Both the position numbers and the translations under genes were made by a program. From NCBI RefSeq assembly GCF_029232205.1, contig NZ_CP107255.1, forward strand, positions 630,001-662,000: a stretch of DNA of 32,000 nucleotides. The letters are read 5' to 3'. Positions 221-22,700 of the stretch are shown in pieces. The stretch is from Candidatus Saccharimonadota bacterium. Its GTDB lineage: Archaea > Nanohalarchaeota > Nanosalinia > Nanosalinales > Nanosalinaceae. The stretch's first letter is position 1, and the number at the start of each line of letters is the position of its first letter. The notes under the pieces are model-generated. The model worked only from the letters and a program-made list of their open reading frames with translations, was not told the origin of the DNA and made no database searches.

Positions 221-3169
221 TTATTTGAATGCTAGAGCTTGAACTTCCTCTTTTGGAAGACTGCGATTATAGATCCTTAGCTCATCAGCTTTTCCTTCTA
301 GATTTTCGCCCATAATTAATTTTCCAGAGGAATTAGAGTCCATTCCAACCTGCTTTGAGGATCTTTCTTGGCCTCCGATATACAGTTTTTGAGTTGAGCC
401 ATTGAAGTTTAAAGATACGTGCCGCCATGAGGCCCCAATCTCTGCGGTTGTTATGCTTTTTCCAACAGAACCAACAACTACTTCGTCATCAATACCTAGA
501 TAATAGTCTCCTTCATTTACAGAGGCAACAGTACCTACAGGATAGCGAACTAGAACAATACCAGAACCTCCGTCACCACCGAGGCCTCCACCATCACTTC
601 CTCCGCCGCCACCTCCACCAGTGTTCGACATGCCGTCATATCCATTGTTATGCGTCTTGTCGCCTCCACCTTCACCACCGCCTCCTAATCCGCCTAGGCC
701 TCCATAACCAGAACCATCTCCACCTGTATTTGCTCCTCCGCCACCTCCACCGGCGAAATATCCTTCGTCTCCGTATCTCATACCGAACTCTTCAGAGAAG
801 TTTAGGCCTTTACCACCGTCTCCACCGTCGGTAGGATTAGTTATTACGATAGTCTCGCCCTGCTCTCCTGCTCCGCCTCCTCCAGCACCAAAGTCTCCGT
901 TAGTGGTAGGTACGTCTCCACCATCGCTGCCTGAGCCTCTTGAAGTAATATCTTGCTGGGTTGAGTTTCCTCCTAAACCATTATCGTTGCCTGCTCCACC
1001 GCCAGATCCGCCGCTAAGACCATCTGAACCATCATCAGATCCTCTACCACCGCCTCCGCCTCCGATAGCTTTTACATCTTTAAAGCTCGAGTTTTCGCCG
1101 TTATTGCCGAAAGATGGCGTAGTTGTTCCTCCACTACCTCCATCTCCAACTTTAACGGTGTAGGCGCCTGAATTTAGACTATAATTATTCAGATATACGA
1201 GGCCTCCTGCTCCACCTCCTCCTGAGCCTCCATTATTATTTCCAGTATTTGAGGATCCTCCTCCGCCACCACCTGCAACTATAAGGGCGTCTACGTCTAA
1301 TTCTCCACCAGTGACATTTAGAGAAGATTCTCCTACGTTTGTAAATGCATGAACCTTGTAGAGAATTCCATTATCCTTGACATAATACTTATCTTCGCCT
1401 CCTATCACGTCAATGGAATCTTGATCAGATTTTACCCAGGAAGAAATAGTTACTTTACTATCAACGCTGGTAAGACCGAATTTCTTTATATTGCCGCTAT
1501 CTAAACCCACAGAATAGCTATCTAGAACTCCTCTTCTATTCATGTCTGAAGTATCATAAGCTGTTTTCCTATCACCTTCCTCAAATCTCCATCTGCCAAT
1601 TAGTCTATCATTAACCTGTTTGCCATTGTATAGAGCCCTAACTTCAGAAGTAGAAAGGGCCTTTGAGTATATTCTGGCGTCATCTATCTTACCGTTGAAA
1701 TAACCAGTTGTTCCTTCCTTATCAGCGCCTATTGTAACATCTGCATCAAAAGCTTCAAGGTTTCTATTTGTGGTTTCTGAACCTACTTGATCGCCGTTAA
1801 CATACAACTTCCTGGTTCCTGTCTTCTCTGAATATGTTAATGCGACGTGAACCCATTCATTATCTGGAATACTTGTTGCCGAGCCACAGTCATCCCCTCC
1901 ATCTCCAATGCACCCATATAATCCTCCAGATTTGGTAGCAATGAACCAGAAAAAGTTCCCTTCTCTCTTAGATATAATCTTATCATATGTTCCTGAGATA
2001 GAACTCTGTTTTATCCAGGCCGAAAGTGTCAGCTCTTCCGTCAAATTTAACGAATTAGAACCTGAGAGATCAACATAATCATTATCTCCGTCAAACTTCA
2101 AAGAGTAATCTCCTACTTTGCCTTCTTTCCAACCGCTCGAAGCATTGAAATCGAAATTTTTGAGTTCTCCAGTTTTCCCGCCATAAAATGTTCCAAGATG
2201 CGAATTCTGAGAGTAGTCCTTTATTGCAGGCCTGTTTAGCGGTGTATCCCTGACCCAGCCACTGCCCATTTCCAGCTGATTATTCTCAAATCCTCGAGGA
2301 GTTCCACTATTACCATTTGCAGAATCATCTGTGAGACAGGCATTAGAAGCAGCAATATCACATCTTTTCGGGCCCTCATTGAAGTTTTGATAAAATATAA
2401 GATTTTCGCGTGAAACAGTCTTTTCTTTGTAAAGTTTCTGAACTTCTAGTTCGGTTAAATTAGTTTTATAGACTCTAACGTCATCCACCTTCCCATCAAT
2501 ATTTCCATCAAGGCCTGTTCCTATGGAGGAATTGCTTAAAGAGTTCATCCATGTATCATCGCCATCTGGATCTACAGTATAATCTTTTTGGCCATTAAGA
2601 TATACTGTGTAGTTGTCTCCATTCCAAACATAACCTATGTGGTACCAAGTTCCTGTTGATATACTACTGCCTTCTTCCGAAGTCCTGACACCGTCCGTAG
2701 CAATCTTCACATTTCCACTCGGACTAGCACCTATCTGTTCGTTTTCGCCTTCTTCATCTGTCCATTCGAAAAACGCGGTATACTCATTTTGGAAAGAATC
2801 AAACTTAACCCATCCAAAAACAGATCTGGATTCATTTGCTGGATCAGAAATTTGAGATAGTGGATCTTCTAAAGAGATGTAGTCATCTTGCCCATCAAAA
2901 TCCAGGCTGTAACCTCTAGAAACCTTGGGATCGTCAAATCGCCAGTATCCTTGTAGGCCATCTTGGAGATTTGCTTGGCTGGATTGAACCTCTTTATCTC
3001 CTGTAGTACTTAGTGCTGGGGTCGGACCTGACAGTTCTCCATTATCAAGATATTTTAGTGAATTAGAGGTAGATGAAAGCATAGAAATTGAAGCTACCAT
3101 TAAAACAACAGCAAGAAGAGCCGCACTTTTTTCCGCTGATAAATTTCCTAGAAAATCAAGAGCACTCAC
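221..3169 (-). CDS. Giant surface protein, 982 aa. N-terminal hydrophobic anchor or long signal, three LamG (Laminin_G_3-type) domains, and a glycine-rich domain inserted in the last LamG. GTG start.
   Basis: 982-aa ORF. Hydrophobic segment AALLAVVLMVASISML near the N-terminus. LamG signatures recur: GYWRFDD...FDGQDDYISL...WYHIGYVW...VYLNG...GKVDDVRVYKTNLTELEVQKLY; KFDGDNDYVDL...SAWIK...WVHVALTY...LYVNG...GKIDDARIYSKALSTSEVRALY; and C-terminal ADELRIYNRSLPKEEVQALAFK. Confidence 0.88.
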   Translation of the reverse strand: MSALDFLGNLSAEKSAALLAVVLMVASISMLSSTSNSLKYLDNGELSGPTPALSTTGDKEVQSSQANLQDGLQGYWRFDDPKVSRGYSLDFDGQDDYISLEDPLSQISDPANESRSVFGWVKFDSFQNEYTAFFEWTDEEGENEQIGASPSGNVKIATDGVRTSEEGSSISTGTWYHIGYVWNGDNYTVYLNGQKDYTVDPDGDDTWMNSLSNSSIGTGLDGNIDGKVDDVRVYKTNLTELEVQKLYKEKTVSRENLIFYQNFNEGPKRCDIAASNACLTDDSANGNSGTPRGFENNQLEMGSGWVRDTPLNRPAIKDYSQNSHLGTFYGGKTGELKNFDFNASSGWKEGKVGDYSLKFDGDNDYVDLSGSNSLNLTEELTLSAWIKQSSISGTYDKIISKREGNFFWFIATKSGGLYGCIGDGGDDCGSATSIPDNEWVHVALTYSEKTGTRKLYVNGDQVGSETTNRNLEAFDADVTIGADKEGTTGYFNGKIDDARIYSKALSTSEVRALYNGKQVNDRLIGRWRFEEGDRKTAYDTSDMNRRGVLDSYSVGLDSGNIKKFGLTSVDSKVTISSWVKSDQDSIDVIGGEDKYYVKDNGILYKVHAFTNVGESSLNVTGGELDVDALIVAGGGGGGSSNTGNNNGGSGGGGAGGLVYLNNYSLNSGAYTVKVGDGGSGGTTTPSFGNNGENSSFKDVKAIGGGGGGRGSDDGSDGLSGGSGGGAGNDNGLGGNSTQQDITSRGSGSDGGDVPTTNGDFGAGGGGAGEQGETIVITNPTDGGDGGKGLNFSEEFGMRYGDEGYFAGGGGGGANTGGDGSGYGGLGGLGGGGEGGGDKTHNNGYDGMSNTGGGGGGGSDGGGLGGDGGSGIVLVRYPVGTVASVNEGDYYLGIDDEVVVGSVGKSITTAEIGASWRHVSLNFNGSTQKLYIGGQERSSKQVGMDSNSSGKLIMGENLEGKADELRIYNRSLPKEEVQALAFK
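539..1363 (-). other. Glycine-rich domain (aa ~603-877 of the 982-aa protein) nested inside its C-terminal LamG domain.
   Basis: It starts YKVHAFTNVGESSLNVTGGELDVDALIVAGGGGGGS, has multiple GGGGxG runs, and ends GGDGGSGIVLVRYP. This start/end pattern matches the 'glycine-rich domain-containing protein' family as I remember it. LamG sequence resumes immediately after (GDYYLGIDDEVVVG...WRHVSLNFNGSTQKLYIGG...). Confidence 0.6.
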
Positions 3170-3296
3170 TGCTTTCGTCCCTCTCGTATGACCATTTCCT
3201 TTCCATTAATTTTTACCGGTGTTCTTTGATTCCTTCTTAATGGATATATTTTCTTGGGCATAACACCATGTTATTCTTCTCTATGGCAAAATACTG

Positions 3297-6200
3297 CTAA
3301 CTGAAGCTCAGGCCTTCTACTTCTAATTCGGTCAGGCTTCTGTTGTAGATTCTGAGCTCGTCAATTCCTCCCTGGAATACTGTGATGTTTTCTTCCAGCG
3401 TGCCTCCTAGTATAGGGGGCAAGGTGTCTGCAGCTTTCTGAGATATCAGTTCTTTATGCTGCATTTCGCCGTTTCTGTGTAGTTTGATATTTTGCCCTGC
3501 TTTTCTTGTTGCTGTAAAGTGTGTCCAGCGGGTTAGCGGGGCATCTACATGAGCGGTAACTGTTTTATTAGCTGTACGGTATCTGTAGATAAGTTTTCCA
3601 TCTTCGGTCCATATGTTAAGGCCTTCAGTTTTTTCTGGAGAGGCCTCTGTTTTTGTGTATGGGCCTGCGTATTTTCCTGGTGTTCTCTGTGCGCCCCATA
3701 CAAAGTAGGTGCTGTTGTCTTTTCTATTGAAGAACTGGTATCCTCTGTCTTCCTGAACTGCTTCTAGAGTGCAGGAGTAGTATTGCCAGTAAGTTTTCAG
3801 GTTGAAGAGGCACATGTTTCCGTCGTCGAGGCCGAGTCGGAAGTCATCTCCTCCCGTCCTACTTTTGGCCCATACACTTGCGGTGTAGGTCTTGCCTATT
3901 TCTGTATCTAGATGCTGTATTCTGCCGGTTTTGCTGTCGCATCCAGTACCGTAGCTTACTTTGATGCTTTGCGCAGTGTTTGAACCATCAGGCGCGGTAA
4001 AACCGTTGTTTGTTTCTCCCCATCCACAGTAGCCATTCCAGTAAGAGGATTTGCTGGTGTTTTGAGAGTAGCTTAGAGAGTTATAGCTTGACTGCGATAG
4101 AATTGAGGTAGGCCTTTCTGTTTCAGGTTTTATCCATGCTGATATACTGTAGTTTTTGCTGTAGTCTGCTCCGTAGGTCTGTATTTTGTTGTAGGCCTCT
4201 CCAAAGTTTACTCCTTTACTGTCCAGTATTCCTTCTTTACCTGCTGTTGCTGTATCGTAGACTTTTCCTAGTTCTCCGGAGTCAAAGCTCCATTGAGCTG
4301 TTAGGCCGTCCGTAACTTGTTCGCCGCGGTAAAGTCTCTGCTCTTCGGAGGCCGATAGCGTTTTGGAGTAGAATCTGACATCGTCTATTTTTCCTGTGAA
4401 GTTTGTGTTTACTCCTCCATATGTGTCAGTTATCGCTCCAATATGCGGTTCCCCATAGTTTGGTTTTTCGCACATTACACCTCCGCCGTTATACGCTACC
4501 TCTGTGGCCTTCTTCTCCCCGTTCACATACACGGTGTCAGGCATTGATGTGTTGTAGGCTCCTGTTACACTGACCTGATACCATTCTCCTGGTGTGAAAG
4601 AGTGGTCAACGGTAACCCGTAGATCATTATCGCAGCTGGCCTCTCTTCCCCAGGTAATGTTGCTTTGAGTGCCTTCTATGTAGAAGTACTTTGAGGAAGA
4701 AGACATATCGTAGAGAGTGCTCTCCCAATCAGATTTTTCAGGCTTGAACCAGAGCGATATCGAAAAATTATCTTTATCTATAAGGTCGGGGACCGCCACA
4801 TAATCGTTGGCTCCGTCAAAATCGTAGCTGTTTCCGTATTTTCCTTCACTAGGTATAGGGCCTTCTGTTATATCATCAATTTGAACCCAGTGTCCTACCG
4901 TGTCATCATTGTAGAAGTAAATGTTTGTGTCGGCCTCTGTTTTATCTATCGTAGTAGTGTATGTTTTCCACTCGCTATGGAATTCATGTTGGCTCGTGCC
5001 AGGCCCTGACGAAATACTTGTAGATCCATTGTATACAATCAGTTTGCAGCCATATCCTCTGCAGGCATACTGTATTTCTGTTCCCTGTACAGCGTCATAA
5101 TCGAAGTCTGACATTTTAGCGCATGCCAGGCCGTCTCCACCGGTAGAGTTCATCAGGTAGGAATAGTCGCTTTTGTAGCCTTCTTCAACAATTCTCGAAC
5201 TTGGTTCTCCTCCGCAGTTCGTCTGCCATCCATCACTATTGTTGTCTTCCCAGCCTTCAAAGAATCCTCCGCTGATCAGGCCTTCTCTGTTGTTGAAGAT
5301 CAAGCTTTGTTCATATCCCTTGACGTGATTTTCGAACTTCAACCTTTCGACAGGTCCCTTTGAATTCCAGCCACTGCCCGTGTTGAAGCTATTATCATCA
5401 AAATTACGAGGCGTCCCAGCGTTACCTCTGCCGGAGTCGTCAGTTATACAGGAGTTATTTGACGTCAGATCACAGCTCTGTGGGCCTTTGAAGAGGTAGC
5501 TAAGAACTAAATTTTCTCTTGGTGCGGGCTTGTCTGAGAATAGGGTCTTGGCTTCTTTCTGTGTTATTGACCTGTTATAGATCTTTATGTTCTGTATTTG
5601 GCCCTGGAAGTTTTTGCTATTGCCTTCATTCACCTGTGCACCTATGCCGAATTCATAGCTGTATCCAGAGTTTAGATTTCCCTGTTCAACCAGTTTGCCG
5701 TCGACAAAGAGTTTTCCATTATCTGTTCTAAGTACTGCGATTATATGATGCCACTCAGTAGGATTTGATAGAGTATGGTTCAACGGCGGCGGATTTGTAT
5801 CGCCGTAGTCATTCCTGCTGAAAGCTCTGACTTCTCCATCGACATACTTTATCCCTGATCCCCATCCGTTCCAGTGATTGGTTCCTTTATCCATCCTTCC
5901 TGCAATAGCTGATTCTTGAATCTCTTGAGTTGGTTTTATCCAAACTGAAATAGTCACAGGATTATTGCAGTTATTTCTGCAGTCATCTGAAGGATATTCT
6001 TCTACATTGGCCTCTATGTAATCATCTGTTCCATCAAATTCTATACTATTGCCTGAGGAAATATCAAGAGTGTCAAAGCGATAATAAGCCTCTAGTCCCT
6101 CCTTTAGTGCAGAACTACTAGCGGTTTGAGATAACGGATTTGAAGATGCGGAAAGTCCGGATCTGTTTTCATCAGATAGTGAGGCGGAAAAACTATTTTG

Positions 6201-6302
6201 CTTCTGTAAGGTGTCGAAACCTGCTGAGAATGCTACTATGAGCGTTACCGCTGCGATGAGAATCCTGGCATCATACGGAGTAATAATATTCAAAGAATGC
6301 AT
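3297..6302 (-). CDS. Giant surface protein, 1001 aa. N-terminal hydrophobic anchor, three LamG domains, a Cys-containing ~140-aa module, and a second Cys-containing beta-sandwich-like insert in the last LamG.
   Basis: 1001-aa ORF with ATG start. ILIAAVTLIVAFSAGF hydrophobic segment. LamG C-terminal motifs GQIQNIKIYNRSITQKEAKTLF, GKIDDVRFYSKTLSASEEQRLY, GGIDELRIYNRSLTELEVEGLSFS. FDGTDDYIEA and FDGANDYVAV strands. Confidence 0.88.
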   Translation of the reverse strand: MHSLNIITPYDARILIAAVTLIVAFSAGFDTLQKQNSFSASLSDENRSGLSASSNPLSQTASSSALKEGLEAYYRFDTLDISSGNSIEFDGTDDYIEANVEEYPSDDCRNNCNNPVTISVWIKPTQEIQESAIAGRMDKGTNHWNGWGSGIKYVDGEVRAFSRNDYGDTNPPPLNHTLSNPTEWHHIIAVLRTDNGKLFVDGKLVEQGNLNSGYSYEFGIGAQVNEGNSKNFQGQIQNIKIYNRSITQKEAKTLFSDKPAPRENLVLSYLFKGPQSCDLTSNNSCITDDSGRGNAGTPRNFDDNSFNTGSGWNSKGPVERLKFENHVKGYEQSLIFNNREGLISGGFFEGWEDNNSDGWQTNCGGEPSSRIVEEGYKSDYSYLMNSTGGDGLACAKMSDFDYDAVQGTEIQYACRGYGCKLIVYNGSTSISSGPGTSQHEFHSEWKTYTTTIDKTEADTNIYFYNDDTVGHWVQIDDITEGPIPSEGKYGNSYDFDGANDYVAVPDLIDKDNFSISLWFKPEKSDWESTLYDMSSSSKYFYIEGTQSNITWGREASCDNDLRVTVDHSFTPGEWYQVSVTGAYNTSMPDTVYVNGEKKATEVAYNGGGVMCEKPNYGEPHIGAITDTYGGVNTNFTGKIDDVRFYSKTLSASEEQRLYRGEQVTDGLTAQWSFDSGELGKVYDTATAGKEGILDSKGVNFGEAYNKIQTYGADYSKNYSISAWIKPETERPTSILSQSSYNSLSYSQNTSKSSYWNGYCGWGETNNGFTAPDGSNTAQSIKVSYGTGCDSKTGRIQHLDTEIGKTYTASVWAKSRTGGDDFRLGLDDGNMCLFNLKTYWQYYSCTLEAVQEDRGYQFFNRKDNSTYFVWGAQRTPGKYAGPYTKTEASPEKTEGLNIWTEDGKLIYRYRTANKTVTAHVDAPLTRWTHFTATRKAGQNIKLHRNGEMQHKELISQKAADTLPPILGGTLEENITVFQGGIDELRIYNRSLTELEVEGLSFS
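3624..4049 (-). other. Inserted module (aa ~752-893) splitting the C-terminal LamG of the 1001-aa protein. Candidate carbohydrate-binding-module-like beta-sandwich.
   Basis: SYWNGYCGWGETNNGFTAPDGS...GKTYTASVWAKSRTGGDDFRLGLDDGNMCLF...YYSCTLEAV...FVWGAQ. It is flanked by the LamG N-half (AQWSFDSGELGKVYDTATAGKEGIL...SISAWIKPE) and C-half (WTHFTATRKAGQNIKLHRNG...IDELRIYNRSL). The pattern 'G.TY..SVWAK' resembles CBM4/9-type modules. Boundaries are approximate. Confidence 0.45.
4854..5270 (-). other. Conserved Cys-containing ~138-aa module, copy A (aa ~345-483 of the 1001-aa protein).
   Basis: FFEGWEDNNSDGWQTNCGGEP...NSTGGDGLACAKM...IQYACRGYGCKLIVYNGSTSISSGPGT...NIYFYNDDTVGHW...ITEGPI. By hand alignment 89 of 138 positions are identical to copy B at 8013..8426. 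Confidence 0.7.
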
Positions 6303-6328
6303 AACAGGTTACCTTGGGATTTTGTTGC

Positions 6329-6340
6329 TAGGAATTTAAT
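6329..6340 (-). promoter_or_regulatory. Candidate TATA-box promoter element of the 1001-aa LamG gene.
   Basis: The minus strand reads ATTAAATTCCTA, ending 26 nt upstream of the ATG at 6302. The identical 12-mer lies upstream of the LamG gene at 19704. Confidence 0.4.
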
Positions 6341-6395
6341 ATTATCTTAAAGCCCACAGTGCAACTAATTTGCTTTTATCAGAGCATATCAATCC

Positions 6396-9300
6396 CTATT
6401 GGAATGCCAATTTTTCTATTTCATTTTGATTCAAACTTCGATTGTAGATTCTGACTTCGTCAAGCTTGTTTGCATAGTTTCTTCCCAGTGTTGTGGGCCC
6501 TCTGGCTTTTTTGCTGCTTGAGATATTGTAGTCTTCTTCTATAAGCTGGGTTCCTGAGTAAAGTTTTGCTGTGTTGCCGTCAAAGGTTAACGTGATGAGT
6601 TTCCAGTTCTTGTCAAGTTCGGGGCTTTCCAGGAATCTGCCGTTGACATGGGCCAGGATTTTTCTTTCATGCAGTGTCAGGCCATACCTGTTGTTTTCTG
6701 AAATAGCGGTGTAGGTTTTCATTGATAGGTCGTCCATCCAGAGGCCTGCGTTTCCTCCGGAAGGGCCGTTGTATCCGTTGTTTCCGTCTCCGCCATCTAT
6801 CTGGTATCTTATTGTTCTTGTTCCTTTCGGTGGTTTGTAGGAAGGTGTTATGTGGAACCAGTCGCCGTATTTTTCCACATATTCTTCATTGAGGTTGTAG
6901 GCCTCTCCCATCCACCGAGTTTTGTTTTCTCCCAGAAGTGTTCCATTTTCGCTGTAGTAGTAGAAATGTAGTCGGACATCATCTTCATAGACGTACGGAG
7001 TGGCTTTGAGACCTTCCCAGTTGGCATCGGAGTATGATGGAAGGTTTATCCATGCTGAGGCCTTGAATGCGGAGTTATCCTCTACGCTGACGTTCTGGTA
7101 GATGTATGCGTTTGGCCATGTTCCTGGGCCTTCGTTCCATGGGTTTCCGAATGATTTTGAGCCTTCGGTGTTCGGTGCCAGTCTGTCATCTGTGACGTTC
7201 CAGCCGTTTTCGTCCGGATAATTCCAGTTTTCAGGGTTTGTCTCGTCGTAAGGATCTTCCTCGAATCCCGGATTTTTCAGCATGTTTTCAGAGTTATCTC
7301 CTTCAATCCAGCCTGTGACTGTGAATTCCGGGCCTTTTAGTGTTGTTCGGGAAGTTAGATGCGAGTTCTCGCCTCCCAGTGCTTTTCCTCCAAGTATCCC
7401 TTTGTGGCCTGTAGAGGCGGAGTCAAAGGCCTTTTTGCCGTCTGTGTCTTCAAAATTCCATTTTCCTGCGAGTTCTCCGCTGACGGGTTCTCCACTGTAT
7501 ATTTTCTGTATTTCTTTGTCACTGAGTGCTCTTGTGTAGATTCTTATGTCGTCGACTGAGCCTTGCAGCCATTTTTCGCTGTCTGTTGAAGGCCTTCCGA
7601 TTATTGCCTGTTCCGATCTTATTCTTCCGGAGACATCGTCTCTTGTGGAGGAGGCCTGTTTTTCTCCGTCAAGGTAGAGGCTGAATGTTTTTCCTTCTCT
7701 CTTTATTGCCGCGTGGTACCACTGATTTTCGTTTATGTTTGTTGTCAGGATTGTTGAGTCATTGCTTCCCTGCTCAGGGTACAGGTATCCTTTGAGTTCG
7801 TTGTTGTTTCCTGCGTAGATGGCCCATTCGTAGTCGTCGCGGTTTGCTCTGATAAGAGATGAGCCCAGGTTTCCAGTAGATCGGGAAAGATTCTCGTAGT
7901 TCACCCAGCCAGTTACCGTGAAGTTTTCGACTCCAGTGATGTTTCTGTCTATTTCTATGTAGTCATCGTAGCCATCGAGGCGAAGGCCTTTTCCTCTCGG
8001 TGTTCTGTTCTGTATCGGACCTTCTGTGATCATGTCGTAGATTGCCCAGTGGCCCACTTGATCGTCGTTGTACATGTAGATGTTGGCGTCGGACTGGGTT
8101 TTTTCCACGCGAGTGGTGTAGATTTTCCATTCATCGGAGTATTCGTGGTAGTCGGTTCCCGGGCCTGATGAGATATCTGTGGATCCGTTCCAGACGATTA
8201 GTTTGCAGCCGTACCCTTTACATGCGTACTGTATTGTTTCTCCTTCTACTGCTGAGTATGTATAGTCTGTCAGTCTTGTGCATGCGAGGCCGTCTCCTCC
8301 TGTCGAGTTGAGTAGGTATGCGTAGTCGCTGATGAATGTGTCTTCCACCATTTTGTTCTCCGGTTGTCCTCCGCAGCCAAGCTGCCATCCTTCCGAGTTA
8401 TTTTCCTCCCAGTTCTCCAGAAAGTTTCCGCTCATCTCTCCGTTTTCCATGCCCTGAGTATGCATCTGGAATTCGTTGTCCGAGCTGTCCCGAAGAGAAA
8501 GATTGTTCAGCGGCGAGTCCGTGGACCAACCTGACTGAGTTCCTACGGTGTTGTTGATGTTGTAGCCCGTTGCCGGCCAGTTATATAGAGAATCTCCTTT
8601 CAGGCATTTTTGAGTAGAGGAAAGACCACAGTTTTCCGGGCCTTCGTTGAATCTCTGGTAGAACATCAGATTGTCGCTTTCTACGGGAAGGCCTTTCTTG
8701 ACCTCTCTGATCTGATCTCCGGTGAGAGATTTGTTGTACAGTTTTACCTCATCTATTTTACCGTTGTAGAAGTGGTCTGCGTCATATCTGTATCTGCCGA
8801 ACTGTGTCTTGGTACTATGTGAAAAGTTTCCTACGTTCCTGCCGTTTTTCTCCGGTAGCGTTACCTCACTGTCCAGCTGGCCGTTTATGTAGATCCTGCT
8901 TTTGTCGCCAGGCCCGAAGCTTGTGCAGAAGTGGTACCATTTGTTGAGGTTATCTGAAACCCATTCATTGGCTCCTGAATCGTAATAGCCCAGGCTTTTG
9001 TCAGCAGTGTGGCCATCATTTTCGATTGATGGATCTACCTGGTACCAGTAGGTTGTAGATATGTTTCCTGATGTCGTGAGGCTTATGCTGAAAGTGTGGT
9101 CTCTTTTCTCTATCAGTCTTTGATCTGCTCCCCCAGTTGAGGACAGGGCCTCTGGCTTTATCCATGCGCAGTAAGTGGCCTGACTGAAGTTTGTGACTTT
9201 GCTTGGATATCCGTCGTCATCTACCTCTACGTAGTCATCTGTCCCGTCAAGTCTCAAGCTGTACTGTTCAGTTTTTCCAGAGGATTCAAATCTGTAGTAA

Positions 9301-9545
9301 GAGTTTAGGCCTTCTTCGATGCCCGAAGTTGTAACTTCCTGACCTGACACAGAGTTCTCAGTGCTTCCATCGAATAAAAGAGTATTATTGGATCTTTCAG
9401 ATGTTAAAAATTGTGAATTGATATTCTGGAAATTTGCGGAAAATAGAAACAGCATTAAAATTCCTAATGCAAGGGTTAAGGCCTTGAGAGTTGTTCTACT
9501 AGAACTATATTCTTTTAATCTCTGTTTGAAATGTGTGTAGGCCAT
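6396..9545 (-). CDS. Giant surface protein, 1049 aa. N-terminal hydrophobic anchor, three LamG domains, the shared Cys-containing module, and an 'NPGFE'-type CBM-like insert in the last LamG.
   Basis: 1049-aa ORF with ATG start. LKALTLALGILMLFLFSANF hydrophobic segment. LamG motifs LRLDGTDDYVEV...CAWIKPE...GKIDEVKLYNKSLTGDQI; LRLDGYDDYIEI...TGWVN...WYHAAIKREGKTFSLYLDG...GSVDDIRIYTRALSDKEIQKIY; and C-terminal KLDEVRIYNRSLNQNEIEKLAFQ. Confidence 0.88.
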   Translation of the reverse strand: MAYTHFKQRLKEYSSSRTTLKALTLALGILMLFLFSANFQNINSQFLTSERSNNTLLFDGSTENSVSGQEVTTSGIEEGLNSYYRFESSGKTEQYSLRLDGTDDYVEVDDDGYPSKVTNFSQATYCAWIKPEALSSTGGADQRLIEKRDHTFSISLTTSGNISTTYWYQVDPSIENDGHTADKSLGYYDSGANEWVSDNLNKWYHFCTSFGPGDKSRIYINGQLDSEVTLPEKNGRNVGNFSHSTKTQFGRYRYDADHFYNGKIDEVKLYNKSLTGDQIREVKKGLPVESDNLMFYQRFNEGPENCGLSSTQKCLKGDSLYNWPATGYNINNTVGTQSGWSTDSPLNNLSLRDSSDNEFQMHTQGMENGEMSGNFLENWEENNSEGWQLGCGGQPENKMVEDTFISDYAYLLNSTGGDGLACTRLTDYTYSAVEGETIQYACKGYGCKLIVWNGSTDISSGPGTDYHEYSDEWKIYTTRVEKTQSDANIYMYNDDQVGHWAIYDMITEGPIQNRTPRGKGLRLDGYDDYIEIDRNITGVENFTVTGWVNYENLSRSTGNLGSSLIRANRDDYEWAIYAGNNNELKGYLYPEQGSNDSTILTTNINENQWYHAAIKREGKTFSLYLDGEKQASSTRDDVSGRIRSEQAIIGRPSTDSEKWLQGSVDDIRIYTRALSDKEIQKIYSGEPVSGELAGKWNFEDTDGKKAFDSASTGHKGILGGKALGGENSHLTSRTTLKGPEFTVTGWIEGDNSENMLKNPGFEEDPYDETNPENWNYPDENGWNVTDDRLAPNTEGSKSFGNPWNEGPGTWPNAYIYQNVSVEDNSAFKASAWINLPSYSDANWEGLKATPYVYEDDVRLHFYYYSENGTLLGENKTRWMGEAYNLNEEYVEKYGDWFHITPSYKPPKGTRTIRYQIDGGDGNNGYNGPSGGNAGLWMDDLSMKTYTAISENNRYGLTLHERKILAHVNGRFLESPELDKNWKLITLTFDGNTAKLYSGTQLIEEDYNISSSKKARGPTTLGRNYANKLDEVRIYNRSLNQNEIEKLAFQ
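6711..7283 (-). other. Inserted module (aa ~755-945) splitting the C-terminal LamG of the 1049-aa protein. CBM4/9-like ('NPGFE') beta-sandwich candidate.
   Basis: MLKNPGFEEDPYDETNPENWNYPDENGWNV...YIYQNVSVEDNSAFKASAWINL...GLWMDDLSM. It is flanked by the LamG N-half (AGKWNFEDTDGKKAFDSASTGHKGIL...FTVTGWIEGD) and C-half (WKLITLTFDGNTAKLYSG...KLDEVRIYNRSL). Boundaries are approximate. Confidence 0.5.
8013..8426 (-). other. Conserved Cys-containing ~138-aa module, copy B (aa ~374-511 of the 1049-aa protein).
   Basis: FLENWEENNSEGWQLGCGGQP...NSTGGDGLACTRL...IQYACKGYGCKLIVWNGSTDISSGPGT...NIYMYNDDQVGHW...ITEGPI. Paralogous to 4854..5270. Confidence 0.7.
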
Positions 9546-9596: not shown

Positions 9597-10391
9597 TTAA
9601 AACGAGTTAAGGCCTTTCTGATCCGGGTTTTTCAGTACTTTTCCTGATGTCATTGCGAGAGCGAGTCTCCCGTTGCCGATGATCTGTCCTTTGACTGAAT
9701 GTATTTCTCCCTGGAAAAGGCCTTTGCGGGAGAACTCTCCCTGTAGTCTGTCGTATAAGGTTAGAGAGTTTACATCGACTATTTCAGCGTCGTAGTCATG
9801 TTCCTCCATTATTTTCTGAAGTTTCCGTGGATCCGAAGGATTGTTTGTCTTCTGTTCTTTCCTTATTCTCTCTGTTATGCCTCGTGAGGAGATGTCCTGT
9901 TCGTTTTCCAGTGCTACTTTTGATGAGAGGCCTGAAAGTATTTCCGCGCCGTAATCCGCTCCCTGTTCAACCCATCTCTTCGGTATTTTCTCCGATCTTG
10001 TGACTCCAACTTTTACTTCTTGCCCGATCTGTGCCAGGTATACTGAGAATTCTCCGTCGAGATCTGTCTGTGTATCTCCTCTGACGTAGTCCGAGTAAAT
10101 GTCTTTTCCACGGCATTCGCTGCACTGAGAACCGGAGTCAATTTCTCTGAACTCCGGGCATGGCGCTCTTTCGCCAGGGCTTGGAGCAAATCCTGTGCAT
10201 CTTCTCTCATTAGTTACTTCGAAAGAAACTTTTCTGCCTGGCTGTAGACCTCTTTTTTCGAAGCCATTCGGGCCTGCTAACAGTAGTTTTGCTTTCCATC
10301 CGTCAGAGGAATTCTTCCACTGTACTTTGACTATCGAATTCACTGAGTTCGTCCTCCAAGTGTTTTCTGTGTGCTGCTCCGACAAATGCAA
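9597..10391 (-). CDS. Zinc-ribbon-containing hypothetical protein, DUF2797-like. Start codon uncertain.
   Basis: 264-aa ORF. Cys cluster CTGF...CPEFREIDSGSQCSECRG, followed by VYLAQIGQEVKVGVTRSEKIPKRWVEQGADYGAEI. I recall this pattern (KVG-TR...RW..QGA) as DUF2797, from memory only. The track start is TTG at 10391 and overlaps the TraB gene by 89 nt. In-frame alternatives are TTG at 10385 and GTG at 10343. Confidence 0.6.
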   Translation of the reverse strand: MHLSEQHTENTWRTNSVNSIVKVQWKNSSDGWKAKLLLAGPNGFEKRGLQPGRKVSFEVTNERRCTGFAPSPGERAPCPEFREIDSGSQCSECRGKDIYSDYVRGDTQTDLDGEFSVYLAQIGQEVKVGVTRSEKIPKRWVEQGADYGAEILSGLSSKVALENEQDISSRGITERIRKEQKTNNPSDPRKLQKIMEEHDYDAEIVDVNSLTLYDRLQGEFSRKGLFQGEIHSVKGQIIGNGRLALAMTSGKVLKNPDQKGLNSF

Positions 10392-10947
10392 CTATGTCAC
10401 TGTCCGGGTTTTCTCTCTGAACCTGTTTCAAGGATTCAGTCATTATAACATTTCTCTCCTCCATCAGCACAGAATAAAGGCCTGGAAAACTGTGTTTCAT
10501 TTCCACACTCATTTGCTGTACAAGTTTTTCATCTGGAATACTTGACACATCAAGACTTCCAGGAAGCACAAGGCCGGCAAGAAGCGATAGACTGGCCTTA
10601 ACCTTCTCCTTCCTCCTAACTTTCCCCAGCTTTCTCATAGTAGTTCGGATATCCTGGTCGATGAGCACTACTTCTCTGTCCTCTCCCAGAGATTTGTGGT
10701 ATGCGTAGAGCATTTCCTGGCCCGGCATCAGGCCTGTTTTGGAACCTATCTTGTTCTGAAACTTTCTCAAAAGCCTAATGAAGATCGGGCCTCCATCAGA
10801 GCTGTTGTCATCGCCTGTTCTCAAGGCCTGAAGTCTTAAAGGATCAAGTTCCAAGGCCACTATCTCAGGGTCGTGTTTTTCAACGGCCTCATTGATTCTG
10901 TCAATGCTTTCGTGAGAAACGTGGGATGTTCCGTATACATGTATCAT
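10303..10947 (-). CDS. TraB/PrgY/GumN-family protein.
   Basis: 214-aa ORF. The N-terminal motif IHVYGTSHVSHESIDRINEAVEKHDPEIVALELDPLRL and the C-terminal VAFVGAAHRKHL are typical of the TraB family. Confidence 0.8.
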   Translation of the reverse strand: MIHVYGTSHVSHESIDRINEAVEKHDPEIVALELDPLRLQALRTGDDNSSDGGPIFIRLLRKFQNKIGSKTGLMPGQEMLYAYHKSLGEDREVVLIDQDIRTTMRKLGKVRRKEKVKASLSLLAGLVLPGSLDVSSIPDEKLVQQMSVEMKHSFPGLYSVLMEERNVIMTESLKQVQRENPDSDIVAFVGAAHRKHLEDELSEFDSQSTVEEFL

Positions 10948-11052: not shown

Positions 11053-13647
11053 GTGAGGTGTGAAAAATTACTGTGGTTACTTCTTGCACTTGTTTTTGTG
11101 GTTTCACTTGTTAATGGCAGTTCTTATTGGAGGTTTGAAGGCAATAGCTCAGTTTTAGCTGACTTTGGAAGCACTAATCAGAACCTGGATTTTAGTCAGC
11201 CTTCACCTTATTTTGACGGCGAGGAAAACTTTGCTGAGGTTCCACACAACCCAATTTATAATCAAACGAATTTTTCTGTTACTTTCTGGGCCTATAGTCC
11301 TTATTTCAAGGACGAATATACATGGATCGGTAAAAAGGACTTTGGTACTGGCGGACCATGGTATTTTTTGACTGCTACTAGAGGAGTTGGTGAGGATGTA
11401 AAGGTTCAGGAATCTGACATCCAATTCCGCTTTACTGATACTTCCTCATCTGTTCAGACATTTACAACTACAGGCGAGCCCTTGAAAGCAGGGCAATGGA
11501 ATCACCTAGCTTTTTCCAAATCAAGCTCAGACCTCAGGCTATTTCTTAACGGCGAGAAAGTCGGCGATTGGGGAGTTTCTAACAAAATGACTTCCTCTAC
11601 CGATCCAATTGTTATAGGACACGAGCATGGCGGTCACGCAAACTGGTTTGAAGGAAGTATGGACGACATCCGTTTCTTTAACAGGCCCCTGAGTTCGTCT
11701 GAAGTTGCTAAGATATATTCAGATAAAGATGAAAATACTCCCGGACTGGTATCCCACTGGTCTGGAGAAAGTTCTGGGAGAAATCTTACCGAGAGAGTGA
11801 ATAATAGCGAGGCCTACTGGCGAACCCCTTCAACAGAACTAGTTTATGATTTTGAGAGCATCGAGACCAGTTCTGCTACGGATGAATCCGATAACAACTA
11901 TGATGGATCAGTTAACGGCAGAGATAATGGTCTTCTAAAGGGCGGAGCGCAGATTGAAGATGGATATTACTTCCAGGGTTTGAACATCAGCGGCGAGGAT
12001 GATTATGCAGAGATTAATAGTTCTGAGGAGTTCTCCAATATGACAAATATCAGTTTTTCAGTATGGGCCCGGCCAAGTTCCAGCGATTTGACTAATGATC
12101 CTTACCTAATTAGAAAATGGACTAATTACGGTTTGCAGATTGTAGGCGGTTCTCCAACACTTTTTATCAATGCAGACTACGATACAAGAGATCAACTTAC
12201 TAGTGAAACACCTAATCTAGAATCTGGGGAATGGCAGCACATTGTCGCTACGTACAGCGGAGTTACTAACACCTCTCGAATGTATATTGACGGCAATCTT
12301 GTCGGTAGTGCAACAGGATCTCAGGGAAAAGTCGAGGACAGTACAGAAGACATAGGCTTCGGAATGACTACTTACTCCAGTCAGTTCGGTGATTCCGAGT
12401 TCAACGGAAGCATTGATCAGGCAAAGATTTTCAGTCAGGAGCTGAACCAGTCTGAAGTAGAGAAACTTCATAGAATGGAGGACGTCAGTGAAGATCTTAT
12501 CGGAGAATGGACTTTTGACAATGAAAACGCAGGCAAAATATATGATAGCTCTCTAAGTTCAAGCGGCATATCAGATAATGCTCTTCACCTTGACGGAATA
12601 AACGACAATGTTACAGTCAGCACATCCCTGACATATCCTGAAGAGTCATTGACAGCCTGTGCATGGATTAAACCCGAATCCACCAGTCAGAGGCCTGGTA
12701 TAATCACTCAGAGAGATCCTCTGATTCTGGACTATCAACATGGTAATGCAGTATTCATACTTGATGAGCAGTGGTCTGCAAACCTGAATTCAGGAAATCT
12801 TCAGACAGGAAAATGGTGGCATCTCTGCGGTACCTACAAAGAGTCGACGAACAATGCATCTCTTTACGTAAATGGAGATATTGTTGACACACAGATCAAG
12901 GATTACAACCTGACAAATGCAGGATCTACGATACAGATAGGTCATAGAGAGACGGGTGATGGCCCTCAATGGTTCAAAGGGAAAATAGACGAGGTTAAAG
13001 TCGAGTCAAAGGCCCTTTCAGCTGAAGGGATAGAAGATATGTATCTCTCCGAGAGATCAGAGCTTGTTCAGCCTACAGGAGAACCTAATCTAGAAAATAT
13101 AGCCGGAGAGCGAGGGGTCCTAGAAACAGATACTTTTGAGTTCAACGGCGTTGACAGCTATGCGATAGACGAAGATCTTTTCTACCCTCATCAGGGATTC
13201 ACAGTATCTCTATGGGTTAAGAATAACGAAAAATGGGGTAAAAACAGGAAGGAAATCTGGACCTCAGGCCCTGGAGAAATACTTATCCGCGGAGATAATC
13301 GTCCGGGATGGGGCAAAGGTAGCGCAATCTTCCACTGGAACGACGGCAATGAGTGGTATGCTATCCAGTCACACAACCTTACCAAAGGAAAATGGCATCA
13401 CCTAACCGGAGTTTACAATGCAAGTTCCGGAGAATACCGGTTCTACGTCGATGGCCAGAAACAGAAGAGATCTCCTCCAAGCTCTGCACCAGTAGACAAT
13501 TCTCAAAGACTTGAAGATACAACCATGAAACAGTACTTCGGAAGACATCCATCAGGAGACAATCTCTGGAATGGAAAAATCGATGATCTACAGATTTACA
13601 GAAGGCCTCTAACAACATCAGAAGTCAGAGAACTCACTTTTAGGTAA
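11053..13647 (+). CDS. Secreted multi-LamG protein, 864 aa (four LamG domains, Sec-type signal peptide, GTG start).
   Basis: Signal-like N-terminus MRCEKLLWLLLALVFVVSLVNG/SSYWRFEG. LamG C-terminal motifs GSMDDIRFFNRPLSSSEVAKIY, GSIDQAKIFSQELNQSEVEKLH, GKIDEVKVESKALSAEGIEDMY, GKIDDLQIYRRPLTTSEVRELTFR. Confidence 0.88.
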   Translation: MRCEKLLWLLLALVFVVSLVNGSSYWRFEGNSSVLADFGSTNQNLDFSQPSPYFDGEENFAEVPHNPIYNQTNFSVTFWAYSPYFKDEYTWIGKKDFGTGGPWYFLTATRGVGEDVKVQESDIQFRFTDTSSSVQTFTTTGEPLKAGQWNHLAFSKSSSDLRLFLNGEKVGDWGVSNKMTSSTDPIVIGHEHGGHANWFEGSMDDIRFFNRPLSSSEVAKIYSDKDENTPGLVSHWSGESSGRNLTERVNNSEAYWRTPSTELVYDFESIETSSATDESDNNYDGSVNGRDNGLLKGGAQIEDGYYFQGLNISGEDDYAEINSSEEFSNMTNISFSVWARPSSSDLTNDPYLIRKWTNYGLQIVGGSPTLFINADYDTRDQLTSETPNLESGEWQHIVATYSGVTNTSRMYIDGNLVGSATGSQGKVEDSTEDIGFGMTTYSSQFGDSEFNGSIDQAKIFSQELNQSEVEKLHRMEDVSEDLIGEWTFDNENAGKIYDSSLSSSGISDNALHLDGINDNVTVSTSLTYPEESLTACAWIKPESTSQRPGIITQRDPLILDYQHGNAVFILDEQWSANLNSGNLQTGKWWHLCGTYKESTNNASLYVNGDIVDTQIKDYNLTNAGSTIQIGHRETGDGPQWFKGKIDEVKVESKALSAEGIEDMYLSERSELVQPTGEPNLENIAGERGVLETDTFEFNGVDSYAIDEDLFYPHQGFTVSLWVKNNEKWGKNRKEIWTSGPGEILIRGDNRPGWGKGSAIFHWNDGNEWYAIQSHNLTKGKWHHLTGVYNASSGEYRFYVDGQKQKRSPPSSAPVDNSQRLEDTTMKQYFGRHPSGDNLWNGKIDDLQIYRRPLTTSEVRELTFR

Positions 13648-16655: not shown

Positions 16656-16668
16656 CCGGGTTGGCAGA
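16656..16668 (+). repeat. Exact 13-nt upstream copy of the tRNA-Cys 5' end (CCGGGTTGGCAGA, same as 16753..16765).
   Basis: Direct comparison of the two sites: 13 of 13 identical, 97 bp apart, same orientation. Confidence 0.9.
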
Positions 16669-16751: not shown

Positions 16752-16822
16752 GCCGGGTTGGCAGAGTAGTTATGCGACCGCCTGCAGAGCGGTATACCAG
16801 GGTGCAAATCCCTGGCCCGGCT
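16752..16822 (+). tRNA. tRNA-Cys (anticodon GCA), 71 nt, no encoded CCA, no intron.
   Basis: Hand-folded cloverleaf. Acceptor GCCGGGU/GCCCGGC is 7 bp including one U-G pair. Anticodon stem is ACCGC/GCGGU with loop CU-GCA-GA. T stem is CAGGG/CCCUG. The discriminator is U, the known Cys identity element. Atypical points: a 3-4 bp D stem, a D loop AGUAGUUA without GG, and a T loop UGCAAAU instead of UUCRAAU. Confidence 0.8.
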
Positions 16823-19703: not shown

Positions 19704-22700
19704 ATGGCCTTCCAAAAACCTGTATATCTTCTAATGCTTTTTGTAATGTTTATTTCGACTGTTGCAGGTTCTCAGGCCTTTTACAGATTTGATGGCAGTT
19801 CATCCACGGTCTCTGATAGTTCAGCTAACAGTAATGCTCTGGAGTTGTCTTCTTCAGCTATTTCTTTTGATGGAGAGAATGATTACATGCTGGGAGAGCT
19901 TCCTGATTCTGTTGCTGGAAATGAGTCCTGGACTGTTTCTTTCTGGATGAAGTATCAGTCTACAAGCTACAGACAGTGGGTTTCCGTCATAGGTACTGAG
20001 CAGAAGAATAATGCAAGCCACTGGTTGATCAAGTCAGGGAATCAGGCCCAGTTTGGTTTCTGGAGCAGCACTCAGAATGATTTCAGTCTTGATTCTTATG
20101 AGGACGAATGGGCTCATGTCACAACTGTCTACAATAAACCAAACTCAAAGCTGAAAACCTACGTTAACGGAGATTTGAAGGATGAAAACACTGTTAACGA
20201 GGATCCACATCTGAAAGATGGAAAGGTATCTATCGGTAGCGGAATCTACGGTGGCAGAAACAAGTTTGAGGGCCAGATCGGGGATTTCAAGTTATACAGC
20301 GCTCCTCTCAGTTCCAGAGAGGTAGAAGATCTTTACAGGTATTCTGTAGTTTCTGAGAAACCTCTTCTGCACTGGCCTATGGAAGAAGGTTTCGGAAAAA
20401 TTACGGATGTATCAGGTAATTATACAGGCCGGTTTTTCTCTACTGATTCCTCTCTAGTCTATAATTTTGAGGATATAGAGGCCGATAAGGTTGAGGATAG
20501 ATCCTCTAATCAGAATACGGGCCAGCTCAGGAATATTTTAACGGGTTCGGTAAATGGGACTCAGAGAGTGACGGGCCGGAGAGGTAGGGCTCTGGATTTT
20601 GATGGAAGTACTTCTGACAAAGTTGTTCTTTCCGGTGATTCTCTTGACGGCCTTGAAAGCTTCTCTATATCTCTCTGGATTAAGACGAGCAAGTCCGGAA
20701 CACAGGGTATTGTGAGCGGAGCCAACTCAAATACCGATAATGCTCTTGTATTTTATCTTTACGATGATAATCGGCTGCGTACCTACCTGAACAATAATCA
20801 GAATACCTATGCTACTCCAAGCCTTGAGGATGGTTCCTGGCATCATCTTGGCTGGGTTCGAAACAGTTCAGAAAATCAGGAGTACCTGTATGTGGATGGC
20901 GATCTCATGGACGTCAGGACACCAGGATCCTCCAACCCTCTTAACATTTCTACAGATGGCCTGATGCTGGGCCAGGAGCAGGACAGCGTTGGTGGAGGTC
21001 TGACCAGCGGCCAGGCATTCGACGGAAAAATTGACGAGGTCAAGTTCTTCAATGGCACACTTACTAGTTCAGAGATATCACTTCTCTACGAGAGAAGCCC
21101 CGATAATCCTGGTAACTCTACCTCTATGAGTGTGACTATGGATTACAGGAATTCCACGCATTTGTTTGATACTTCTTTCTATGAGAATCATGCTGAGGCC
21201 TCCGCCGGAAGTTCTACCTCCTTGAACAAGTCTGAGTGTGTTGTAGGCCGTTGCCAGAACTTTGATCAGGGCGATTTCTACGAGCTGGATGACAGGCCTT
21301 CGCTTTCAACGGAAAAAGGTTATACTGTGATGTCATGGGTATATGCTGATTCTGCTTCTGCTGGGGAAGAGGAAAGAAGAGTTTTCCGGCATTTTGGCGG
21401 AGACAGTCTTTTCCAGATCTGGAGCGATGATAAAATGCATTTCTACCAGTCAGTTGAAGGGGATCTTTACGCTGTTTCTCATAGCTGGGACTTTCCTCAT
21501 GAGGAGTGGCATCACGTGGCAATGAGTTCTTACTACAATAAGTCATCGAATCAGACTGTTCTGAAAAGCTTTCTTGACGGCGAGTTAAAGGCCACAAGGA
21601 CGGCTGCTGGGAAACCTGATGGCGCCAGTGATAGGCCTTATATTTCATCAAGCTTTGATGGCAGGCTGGATGAGGTCAAGTATTTCAGAGAGTCTTTGAA
21701 CAGTTCCGAGATATCGAATGTAATCCGGCTTAATGGGACGGACAGAGTGCATAGAGGTATGCCTGAGAAAACTCTTGATCTAGGTTTTGACAGGCCTAAC
21801 GGTTCCACGGCTTACAGCCATGCAAATATTGTTTCAGGAGTGAATGGGAGAAGCCTGGAGTTTAATGGATACAACGATGCTGTGGATGTTCCTGACAGCG
21901 GAAGCCTCAAGTTCGGTGATGAAATTACAGTGAGCGCTTGGCTTAACTTGGACAGCTATGACTCCAATAAGGAGCCCGGACGCGGTTCGCATCATATCTA
22001 TAAGTCCGGTTCTTTCGGAATGGTTACCAACAACAACGATATCCATGGATGGATTACAGATAATGGTTCAAGGAGAAATGTTTTCGGAAATAACTGGCCT
22101 AGAAACGAATGGTTTCATACCGCGATAACATTCAATGGATCAGTGGTGAAAATCTATCAGAACGGGAATTTAACCGGTGAAAGAACCTATATCGGCGATA
22201 TCTCAAACAGCACCAATACACTTAGAATAGGTAATGCCGGAGGATTCAACTGGGGAACGGACGGACGACTGGATGAAATCAAGATAATCAGAAAATCCCT
22301 CAACCAGTCACAGATCAAACACCTTTACAGAGGGCAGAAGGCCTCTATAGCACAGTCCACAGGATCAACTCCTATGACTGGCAGAACAGGTCAGGAAGGC
22401 CTATTCAGCTCTTCAAGTTACAGATTTGACAATTCAGGAACTTCTGGAGAGGTCGAAGACATGTTTAATCCTTCTGAAAACTTCAGTATTTCTCTCTGGG
22501 CCAGAAAGAACAGCGAATGGGGCCGCGGTAACGGTTTTCTCTGGAAAAGTTCGGAGGGCAGACTATTCCTGAAAGAGGATTCGCGCGAAATATTTGGTGA
22601 TGGTCTCGTCTTTGGTTATCGGAGGGATGGAAAATATCGTCTTCTGAGCCCGGTTTACAGTCTTGAGAAAGGTAAATGGCACCACATTGTTGCAGGGTAT

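Follow-up and report, generated by a model that had tools for sequence, protein, structure and literature searches.

Insertion of one domain into another is well known in general. Some integrin alpha paralogues have the I-domain in a loop of the β-propeller and others lack it, and in jelly-roll viral capsid proteins, the variable surface that is exposed consists of large loop insertions, e.g., the "towers" of hexon. Reports on LamG surface proteins are already available for DPANN archaea, and nanohaloarchaea live attached to haloarchaeal hosts. Here, we describe three tandem LamG genes, termed A, B, and C, from a stretch of 32,000 nucleotides (positions 630,001 to 662,000 of contig NZ_CP107255.1, in full length termed "the window"). 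The predicted last LamG domain (LamG3) of all three proteins is interrupted just after its "sWvK" strand, and each gene carries a different module at this place. It is quite probable that the three genes represent a membrane-anchored surface family of the nanohaloarchaeal type, in which a split LamG3 jelly roll displays modules that were varied over evolution, likely for attachment to the host.

The arrangement resembles integrin alpha in that a binding domain resides in a loop of a β scaffold, paralogues with and without the insert exist, and the insert is presumably the ligand-binding head. In contrast to integrin alpha, the modules reside in a LamG jelly roll, they comprise at least 10 types of up to about 530 amino acids (aa), sometimes in tandem, and the proteins are archaeal. 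Phage receptor-binding proteins with exchangeable distal modules are similar in combining a conserved proximal scaffold with variable heads, and the insert of B belongs to a domain family named after the head spike fibre of phages and gene transfer agents (GTA; NF048003). However, the variable head of phage fibres is usually C-terminal, whereas here the head is nested and the C-terminal strands of the scaffold follow. Hexon-type capsids likewise have jelly-roll loops that tolerate large insertions, but they belong to another fold subclass and another biology, and their insertions are mostly elaborated loops and not recognizable autonomous domain families.

For Nanohalovita and Nanohalococcus occultus SVXNc a set of LamG genes has been published. 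Gene A is annotated in the species, and A, B, and C fit this set, with the same predicted role and a similar clustering in the relevant passages (PMC10266531). LamG domains are counted in these passages, and nothing is said there of a C-terminal domain that is split, of modules inserted into it, or of proteins without insert. A literature search for LamG domains with domain insertion or nesting found nothing relevant. The papers searched do not describe that a LamG jelly roll hosts many different inserted modules, that insert-free relatives exist, or that gene arrays carry a different insert in each gene.

The C-terminal LamG domain and its two halves

In agreement with the initial annotation, open reading frames (ORFs) of 982, 1001, and 1049 aa were found for gene A (221..3169), gene B (3297..6302), and gene C (6396..9545), which lie in tandem on the minus strand within the first 9.6 kb of the window. 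All features of the three genes given below are on the same strand, and P and L numbers are our handles for proteins and loci. The protein of gene A (P0001) is an NCBI "LamG domain-containing protein" of Candidatus Nanohalovita haloferacivicina, identical except for a shorter annotated start, and the protein of gene B is P0131. The three proteins can be aligned over their full lengths with identities of 27–29%, and they are diverged and old paralogues. Common to them are a hydrophobic N-terminal segment, LamG1, a linker with two invariant cysteines (motif "FNEGPxxCDL..C..DS"), LamG2, and a C-terminal region that ends with "DELRIYNRSL...LAFK", "LSFS", or "LAFQ" in A, B, and C, respectively. In A, the order is N-terminal anchor, LamG1, Cys linker, LamG2, and split LamG3, and the scan of the whole protein yielded an E value of 2e-57 for the Pfam family Laminin_G_3.

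When the C-terminal regions of A, B, and C were scanned unspliced, an above-cutoff Laminin_G_3 match was obtained only from the C-half of LamG3, about 105 terminal aa, and the segment before the insert yielded a weak Pfam match or none when it was scanned alone. For a splice test, about 65–88 aa upstream of the insert were joined to the downstream part and scanned with Laminin_G_3 (PF13385, cutoff 27.6 bits). The spliced domain of A matched profile positions 16–151 with 45.4 bits, compared to 37.6 bits for the C-half alone. The respective results were positions 8–150 and 72.3 versus 53.0 bits for B, and positions 4–150 and 46.2 versus 38.2 bits for C. In addition, the 15 intact LamG domains found in the window were used to build local hidden Markov models (HMMs), and these placed the N- and C-parts on complementary profile ranges.

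The N-half of A (1427..1615, aa 519–581) has TISSWVK as its last strand, scored 100.9 bits with the HMM of the family N-half, and covers columns 1–74 of the HMM of intact LamG3 domains. The C-half of A (224..538, aa 878–982) comprises the segments TVASV, DYYLGID, EVVVGSV, SITTAEI, and WRHVSLN, followed by DELRIYNRSL and LAFK; it matches Pfam profile positions 79–151 and scored 127.8 bits with the HMM of the family C-half. In B, the N-half (4092..4316, aa 663–737) contains the strand SISAWIKP and probably in addition strand β4, "TSILSQS", and the C-half (3300..3623, aa 894–1001) matches Laminin_G_3 positions 53–150. The N-half of C (7293..7484, aa 688–751; 79.6 bits with the N-half HMM) has FTVTGWIE as its last strand, and its C-half (6399..6716, aa 944–1049) begins with β4, "TYTAISE".

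The decisive evidence for a split domain is comparative and comes from homologues without insert. In P0172, P0168, and P0149, an N-half ("GLVGRWNFEAGxRKTAYDTS...sWv") is directly joined to a C-half ("...DExRIYNRSLSxKEvQrLAFQ"), and each of the three proteins has one uninterrupted Laminin_G_3 match (profile start at 1, 2, and 12, respectively, end at 151; E values 1e-27, 9e-29, and 9e-20). Their N-halves scored 65–69 bits and their C-halves 48–65 bits with the family HMMs. Gene 1 of locus L001 is likewise intact, as revealed with the local LamG HMM. Because these homologues have both flanks contiguous as a single complete Laminin_G_3 domain, it is excluded that the flanks are two complete domains. 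The view of the initial annotation that the flanks are halves of one LamG domain thus holds, with spliced Pfam matches that run nearly from end to end. In the split members, the N-half ends at columns 68–80 of the intact-domain HMM (A, B, C, and most others), and the sWvNLD strand occupies columns 61–70; this statement excludes five split members in which the local alignment extends into the insert. Local matches and a scan of splice points were used because hmmalign, with its too high insert penalty, aligned only one half to the intact-domain HMM.

A related alternative would be that the flanks do not form one domain, but that a short N-terminal β element is followed by a separate complete domain made up of the "insert" and the C-half. 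It would account for a 64-sequence MAFFT alignment in which intact LamG domains were placed on the strand "TYTASVWAKS" of the B insert instead of on "SISAWIK", but this alignment was dropped as misaligned and replaced by one with 24 sequences. The C insert does match a LamG profile weakly (18.3 bits, columns 25–112), and the folds of LamG and inserts are both jelly-roll-like. Nevertheless, we regard this alternative as extremely unlikely: the directly joined flanks of the homologues make up a full Laminin_G_3 domain, the N-halves match the N-half HMM with 78–101 bits, and the inserts of A and B cover nearly all of independent domain models (Gly_rich_2 positions 2–225 of 226 and NF048003 positions 5–177 of 182, respectively).

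Structures were predicted with AlphaFold2 for the C-terminal 339 aa of B (24 aligned sequences) and the C-terminal 362 aa of C (27 sequences), from alignments that contained intact LamG domains. In both models the strands of the two halves were predicted with confidence, whereas confidence was low for the insert of B and partial for that of C. For B, the blocks of the predicted local distance difference test (pLDDT) were 71–85 over most of the N-half (residues 1–68, with a strand at 56–64) and 74–92 over the C-half (residues 230–339), except for a dip to 57–62 near residues 291–310, and about 30 for the insert (residues 69–229). The predicted template modeling score (pTM) of 0.54 is close to the share of residues in both halves, (68+110)/339, as would be expected if both halves formed one rigid body. 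For C, the pTM was 0.53, the FTVTGWIE strand at model residues 54–61 was confident (pLDDT block 88), the C-half had pLDDT blocks of 73–95 over residues 261–360, beginning with the "TYTAISE" strand, and the insert contained several fairly confident β strands. In Foldseek searches, the best matches were to clostridial neurotoxin Hc, namely to its lectin-like jelly roll. Both LamG halves probably form one sandwich.

The inserted modules and their insertion point

The initial annotation had proposed that each gene carries a different module, and this was confirmed: A contains Gly_rich_2, B contains NF048003, and C contains an "NPGFE" module without a family match. The insert of A (539..1426, aa 582–877) is a glycine-rich module with an N-terminal "GGxxxYY..G.Y.VH.F" hairpin. 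Pfam Gly_rich_2 (PF21722) matches aa 611–876 with 74.4 bits, far above the cutoff of 24.3 bits (E value 1.7e-20), and the match is preceded by SIDVIGGEDKYYVKDNGILYKVHAFT. In P0005, the equivalent SASVSGGDREYYIQEKGEWYKVHEF is located after a fibrinogen-like domain, directly before the Gly-rich part and distant from the sWvK strand. Therefore, SIDVIGGEDKYYVKDNGILYKVHAFT is part of the module, and the insert of A spans aa 582–877, beginning around nt 1426 and about 20 residues earlier than the initially proposed start at aa 603.

The insert of B (3624..4091, aa 738–893) is a β module that resembles the head spike fibre of phages and GTAs. NCBIfam NF048003 ("GTA_spike_fiber") matches aa 738–889 with 50.6 bits (cutoff 36, E value 3.1e-13), and Pfam CBM_4_9 (PF02018) yielded 22.4 bits (E value 1.7e-4), which is below its cutoff of 25.9 bits. 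Here, too, the start had to be moved, by about 14 residues from aa 752 to about aa 738 (nt 4091), whereas the range initially given for C was close. The insert of C (6717..7292, aa 752–943) is a β-rich module that is 37.5% identical to the insert at the same place in P0006. It had no family match in Pfam, NCBIfam, or the PDB sequences, and CBM_4_9 did not match even at an E value of 10. The previous label as CBM4/9 thus lacks statistical support; the resemblance is confined to the "NPGFE" start and the "DD" end motifs. Searches of the PDB sequences with the inserts of B and C yielded only matches at chance level. Among the three, only the inserts of A and B are recognizable as autonomous domains of a known family.

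The modules had also been termed unrelated. Pairwise comparisons indeed detected no similarity between the inserts of B and C, nor between either of them and the mid modules of B and C described below. Both inserts are β-rich and that of B is weakly CBM4/9-like; they may be distant relatives within a jelly-roll class, and the claim that B and C are unrelated goes too far.

A further claim was that all three modules are inserted in the same loop. In the intact domain of P0172, four strands are found between sWvK and the W.H strand (QMFTFSG, MYHAITT, GVRFQIG, EAYVGSG). Four strands from the insert to the W.H strand were also found for C in the AlphaFold2 model, for A by sequence (TVASV, DYYLGID, EVVVGSV, SITTAEI), and likewise for P0005. 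A β4-like segment directly follows the insert in P0007, P0008, P0200, P0204, P0205, and P0240, and a β4-like strand between sWvK and the insert is absent from the sequences of P0005, P0007, P0008, P0200, P0205, and P0240. In contrast, the model of B has only three strands from the insert to the W.H strand. Before its insert B has "TSILSQS", which resembles "STLYDMSS" of its own LamG2, and the candidate post-insert strand "PYTKTEASP" falls within the NF048003 match.

The splice points were scanned with an independent HMM made from 366 intact LamG domains. For B, the variant that keeps the pre-insert strand was preferred (72.4 versus 68.5 bits), in agreement with Pfam (72.7 versus 69.0 bits). 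For C, the cut was placed at aa 754–758/941–944. The result for A was ambiguous (65.2 versus 62.3 bits), with Pfam slightly in favor of the post-insert strand (47.7 versus 46.7 bits). In our reading, the inserts of A and C are both located in the loop that connects the sWvK strand with β4. The claim of a common loop thus stands for A and C, whereas the strand counts, the span of the NF048003 match, and the splice preference of 3.7–3.9 bits make it likely that the module of B is located one loop later.

Homologues, gene arrays, and the origin of the variety

The predicted layout of the family is a hydrophobic N-terminal anchor, LamG1, the two-Cys linker, LamG2, and a LamG3 that ends with "...DExRIYNRSLSxxEvQrLAFQ". 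Across the members, the gap between N-half and C-half ranges from about 30 aa in intact domains to about 540 aa, and the site is occupied by up to about 530 aa, at times by two modules in tandem. At least 10 insert types were found at this place, and three members (P0172, P0168, and P0149) are devoid of an insert; in an evolutionary sense, the architecture can thus be called cassette-like, as had been suggested. Unless stated otherwise, inserts were typed with Pfam and NCBIfam scans. Gly_rich_2 is present in A, P0002, and P0003, and by sequence similarity in P0150; the head-spike-fibre-like module in B; and the NPGFE module in C and P0006. The survey of homologues added a COLFI/fibrinogen-like insert (P0007), Fibrinogen_C followed by a Gly-rich module (P0005), a weak match to C-type lectin (Lectin_C) followed by a region that is glycine-rich by eye (P0008, insert of 522 aa), FG-GAP repeats (P0200), IgGFc_binding (P0204), and DUF2341 with a legume-lectin-like part (P0240). 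The inserts of P0205, L001 gene 2, L008 gene 3, and L009 gene 1 had no family assignment; the NCBIfam scan yielded nothing for those of C, P0006, P0205, and L001 gene 2.

Family genes are also arranged in arrays at other loci. A 15-kb contig from JGI (L008) contains five genes with family-type C-termini, of which four have a split LamG3 with inserts that are all different; the fifth encodes a protein of 1136 aa with five LamG_3 matches, in which no N-half was detected. L009 contains three family genes, and in L001 one intact and one split gene are adjacent. An exhaustive profile search was dominated by giant multi-LamG proteins, and about 13 of 150 proteins among the matches listed were family members. 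The scan of genome contigs yielded no confirmed family locus, and the metagenome scan yielded seven loci with two clear family members. Word-indexed searches were empty for the C-terminal region of B and for a profile made from the C and P0006 inserts although the collections contain B and P0006, which reveals a limit of the tool.

The C-terminus itself is strictly conserved: with or without an insert in LamG3, nearly all family proteins end exactly with "[LI]AF[QRK]" or "LSF[RS]" after "RIYNRSLSxxE", and P0150 ends with "LNFQ" after "RIYNRILSNKE". This conservation suggests that the end might be functionally important, e.g., as a docking or sorting element. In the partial protein P0032, an insert of about 165 aa (aa about 132–300), with only a weak match to N_NLPC_P60, directly follows the sWvK strand of LamG1. 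The equivalent position in another LamG domain of the family can therefore host a module.

Split domains are not confined to the family. In 265 fetched proteins, unrelated giant proteins included, 21 of 2065 LamG_3 domains were split. The N-part ended at profile columns 44–69 of 174 in 18 of the 21 cases and at columns 89–97 in the other three. The inserts with a family match in giant multi-LamG proteins were Gly_rich_2, L-type lectin, CBM96, CBM_4_9, and a ThuA-like domain, and most inserts in the giant proteins come after "sWvKsdseGyvvaKDP", i.e., after β4 as in B. These positions indicate that the LamG_3 fold generally has a soft spot where the sWvK strand ends and the following region begins. 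In each of the giants P0123, P0147, P0159, P0164, P0221, and others (4000–7700 aa), several LamG domains are split, with a maximum of four in P0147. By eye, an insert of about 720 aa appeared RCC1-like. Domain callers report such nested cases as a "half" LamG plus an unrelated domain, which matters for annotation. The LamG_3 region takes up entire domains with lengths of up to about 530 residues, and it is possibly a grafting site for protein engineering.

We propose that the LamG3 jelly-roll scaffold would tolerate whole domains in the stretch just past the sWvK strand, that the two halves would still fold into one sandwich, and that the module would be displayed on this sandwich. Different modules would have been placed at the site over evolutionary time, which would have led to arrays of paralogues with a different putative binding head in each gene. 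Modules would have been exchanged by ordinary recombination or inserted independently, and programmed switching would not be involved. DNA repeats shared by A, B, and C were only 50–89 nt long, had 60–74% identity, and were located in conserved coding motifs and in the mid module shared by B and C; no repeats that border the inserts were found in the comparison of the three genes. Because no DNA repeats flank the inserts, the variety is attributed to domain shuffling on an evolutionary time scale and not to active switching.

Programmed switching as known from antigenic variation, in which silent copies recombine into an expression site, would be in line with the tandem arrays and with flanks that are conserved at the protein level. 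Yet, apart from the short and diverged repeats, A, B, and C are all full-length ORFs with N-terminal anchors of their own, and a Pfam scan of the ten neighboring ORFs revealed no recombinase. We therefore give this explanation hardly any credence.

Far more weight is given to the view that a permissive LamG_3 region was hit repeatedly and independently, so that modules accreted convergently without an exchange of cassettes on a conserved scaffold. We consider this a substantial possibility, though not the favored one. The splits in unrelated giant proteins, with varied nested modules and inserts mostly past β4, are in congruence with it, as is the insertion point of B that is unlike that of A and C. 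In contrast, the insertion point is identical in most family members, and module types recur on diverged scaffolds, namely the Gly-rich module in A, P0002, P0003, P0150, and P0005, and the NPGFE module in C and P0006. This recurrence is also compatible with vertical descent after one insertion, and convergent accretion and cassette exchange are not mutually exclusive.

The favored reading of a split LamG3 that displays modules varied over evolution also has several points against it. The paralogues share only 27–29% identity and lack insert-flanking repeats, and nothing indicates ongoing exchange. The insertion point of B is different, with a probable shift by one strand, and this is explained better by independent insertions than by exchange at a fixed site. 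The intact LamG domains in the AlphaFold2 input alignments biased the models toward a reassembled domain. A more far-reaching version is rather doubtful: the LamG3 site might be a dedicated display position in nanohaloarchaea and related DPANN archaea and bacteria of the candidate phyla radiation, at which modules are replaced by recombination with paralogues or phage genes, so that the composition of the array sets the host range.

Putative function and genomic neighborhood

For this organism, a count of at least 14 PKD/LamG genes that make up 6.15% of the genome has been published, and in the relevant passages such proteins are proposed to mediate host recognition and fixation (PMC10266531). 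For the family described here, it is likely that the proteins recognize and attach to the surface or glycans of the haloarchaeal host. The module types of the family are nearly all binding modules, which supports, without proving, a putative role as adhesins of varied specificity. The initial annotation expected functionally distinct adhesins or enzymes from one framework, and such a diversification may have occurred. The inserted modules point to LamG3 as a means by which the symbiont could vary what it sticks to. With one scaffold, different lectin-, fibrinogen-, or phage-spike-like heads, and tandem arrays, and as part of the LamG/PKD genes that account for about 6% of the genome, the family members are clear candidates for deciding which host is bound.

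It is unlikely that the proteins are instead secreted enzymes or structural components of the envelope, with inserts that serve catalysis or assembly. LamG/ConA-like folds are found in glucanases and sialidases, Pfam yielded weak matches to the Sialidase N-terminal and trans-sialidase C-terminal families, and one giant protein has a ThuA-like insert. However, all identified inserts of the family are binding or repeat modules (lectins, sub-threshold CBM-like, fibrinogen-like, FG-GAP, head-spike-fibre), and the Pfam and NCBIfam scans detected no catalytic family in A, B, and C.

Two further assignments were considered and not adopted. A class III (pilin-like) signal peptide was looked for by eye, and a "KALT"-like motif is present in C only. 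The TafC family fimbrial protein (NCBIfam NF052521) scored 37–104 bits, compared to an equivalog cutoff of 410 bits, and the match was confined to the LamG part of the model.

B and C have in common a Cys-containing mid module of about 150 aa (4833..5285, aa about 340–490 of B; 8001..8453, aa about 365–515 of C), which has no counterpart in A. With 62% identity it is the best-conserved part of both proteins. It starts with "F.E.WE.NNS.GW", ends with "IDDITEGP", and had no family match in the Pfam and NCBIfam scans. The module is preceded by the conserved Cys linker and followed by the "FDG" strand of LamG2; possibly, it represents another nested module, inserted in the N-terminal loop of this domain.

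The window contains five LamG genes in total. The remaining two are multi-LamG genes on the plus strand, D (11053..13647) with four and E (19704..22889) with five intact Laminin_G_3 matches. Both are devoid of the Cys linker of the family and of an LAFQ-type C-terminus; D ends with "...LTFR". The neighboring genes encode archaeal housekeeping functions, i.e., Orc1/Cdc6, cysteinyl-tRNA synthetase, a class I aminoacyl-tRNA synthetase (Pfam tRNA-synt_1), a DHH phosphoesterase, and a NUDIX protein. ORFs for a DUF2797 protein and a TraB/GumN-family protein (9597..10391 and 10303..10947, respectively, minus strand) overlap by 89 nt as listed, and the true start of the DUF2797 gene is probably further downstream than the listed TTG. 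The only tRNA gene of the window encodes tRNA-Cys (GCA; 16752..16822). Its first 13 nt (CCGGGTTGGCAGA) are exactly repeated 97 nt upstream (16656..16668), within a stretch of about 890 bp without an ORF of at least 120 aa, and the repeat may have remained from a duplication or integration event.

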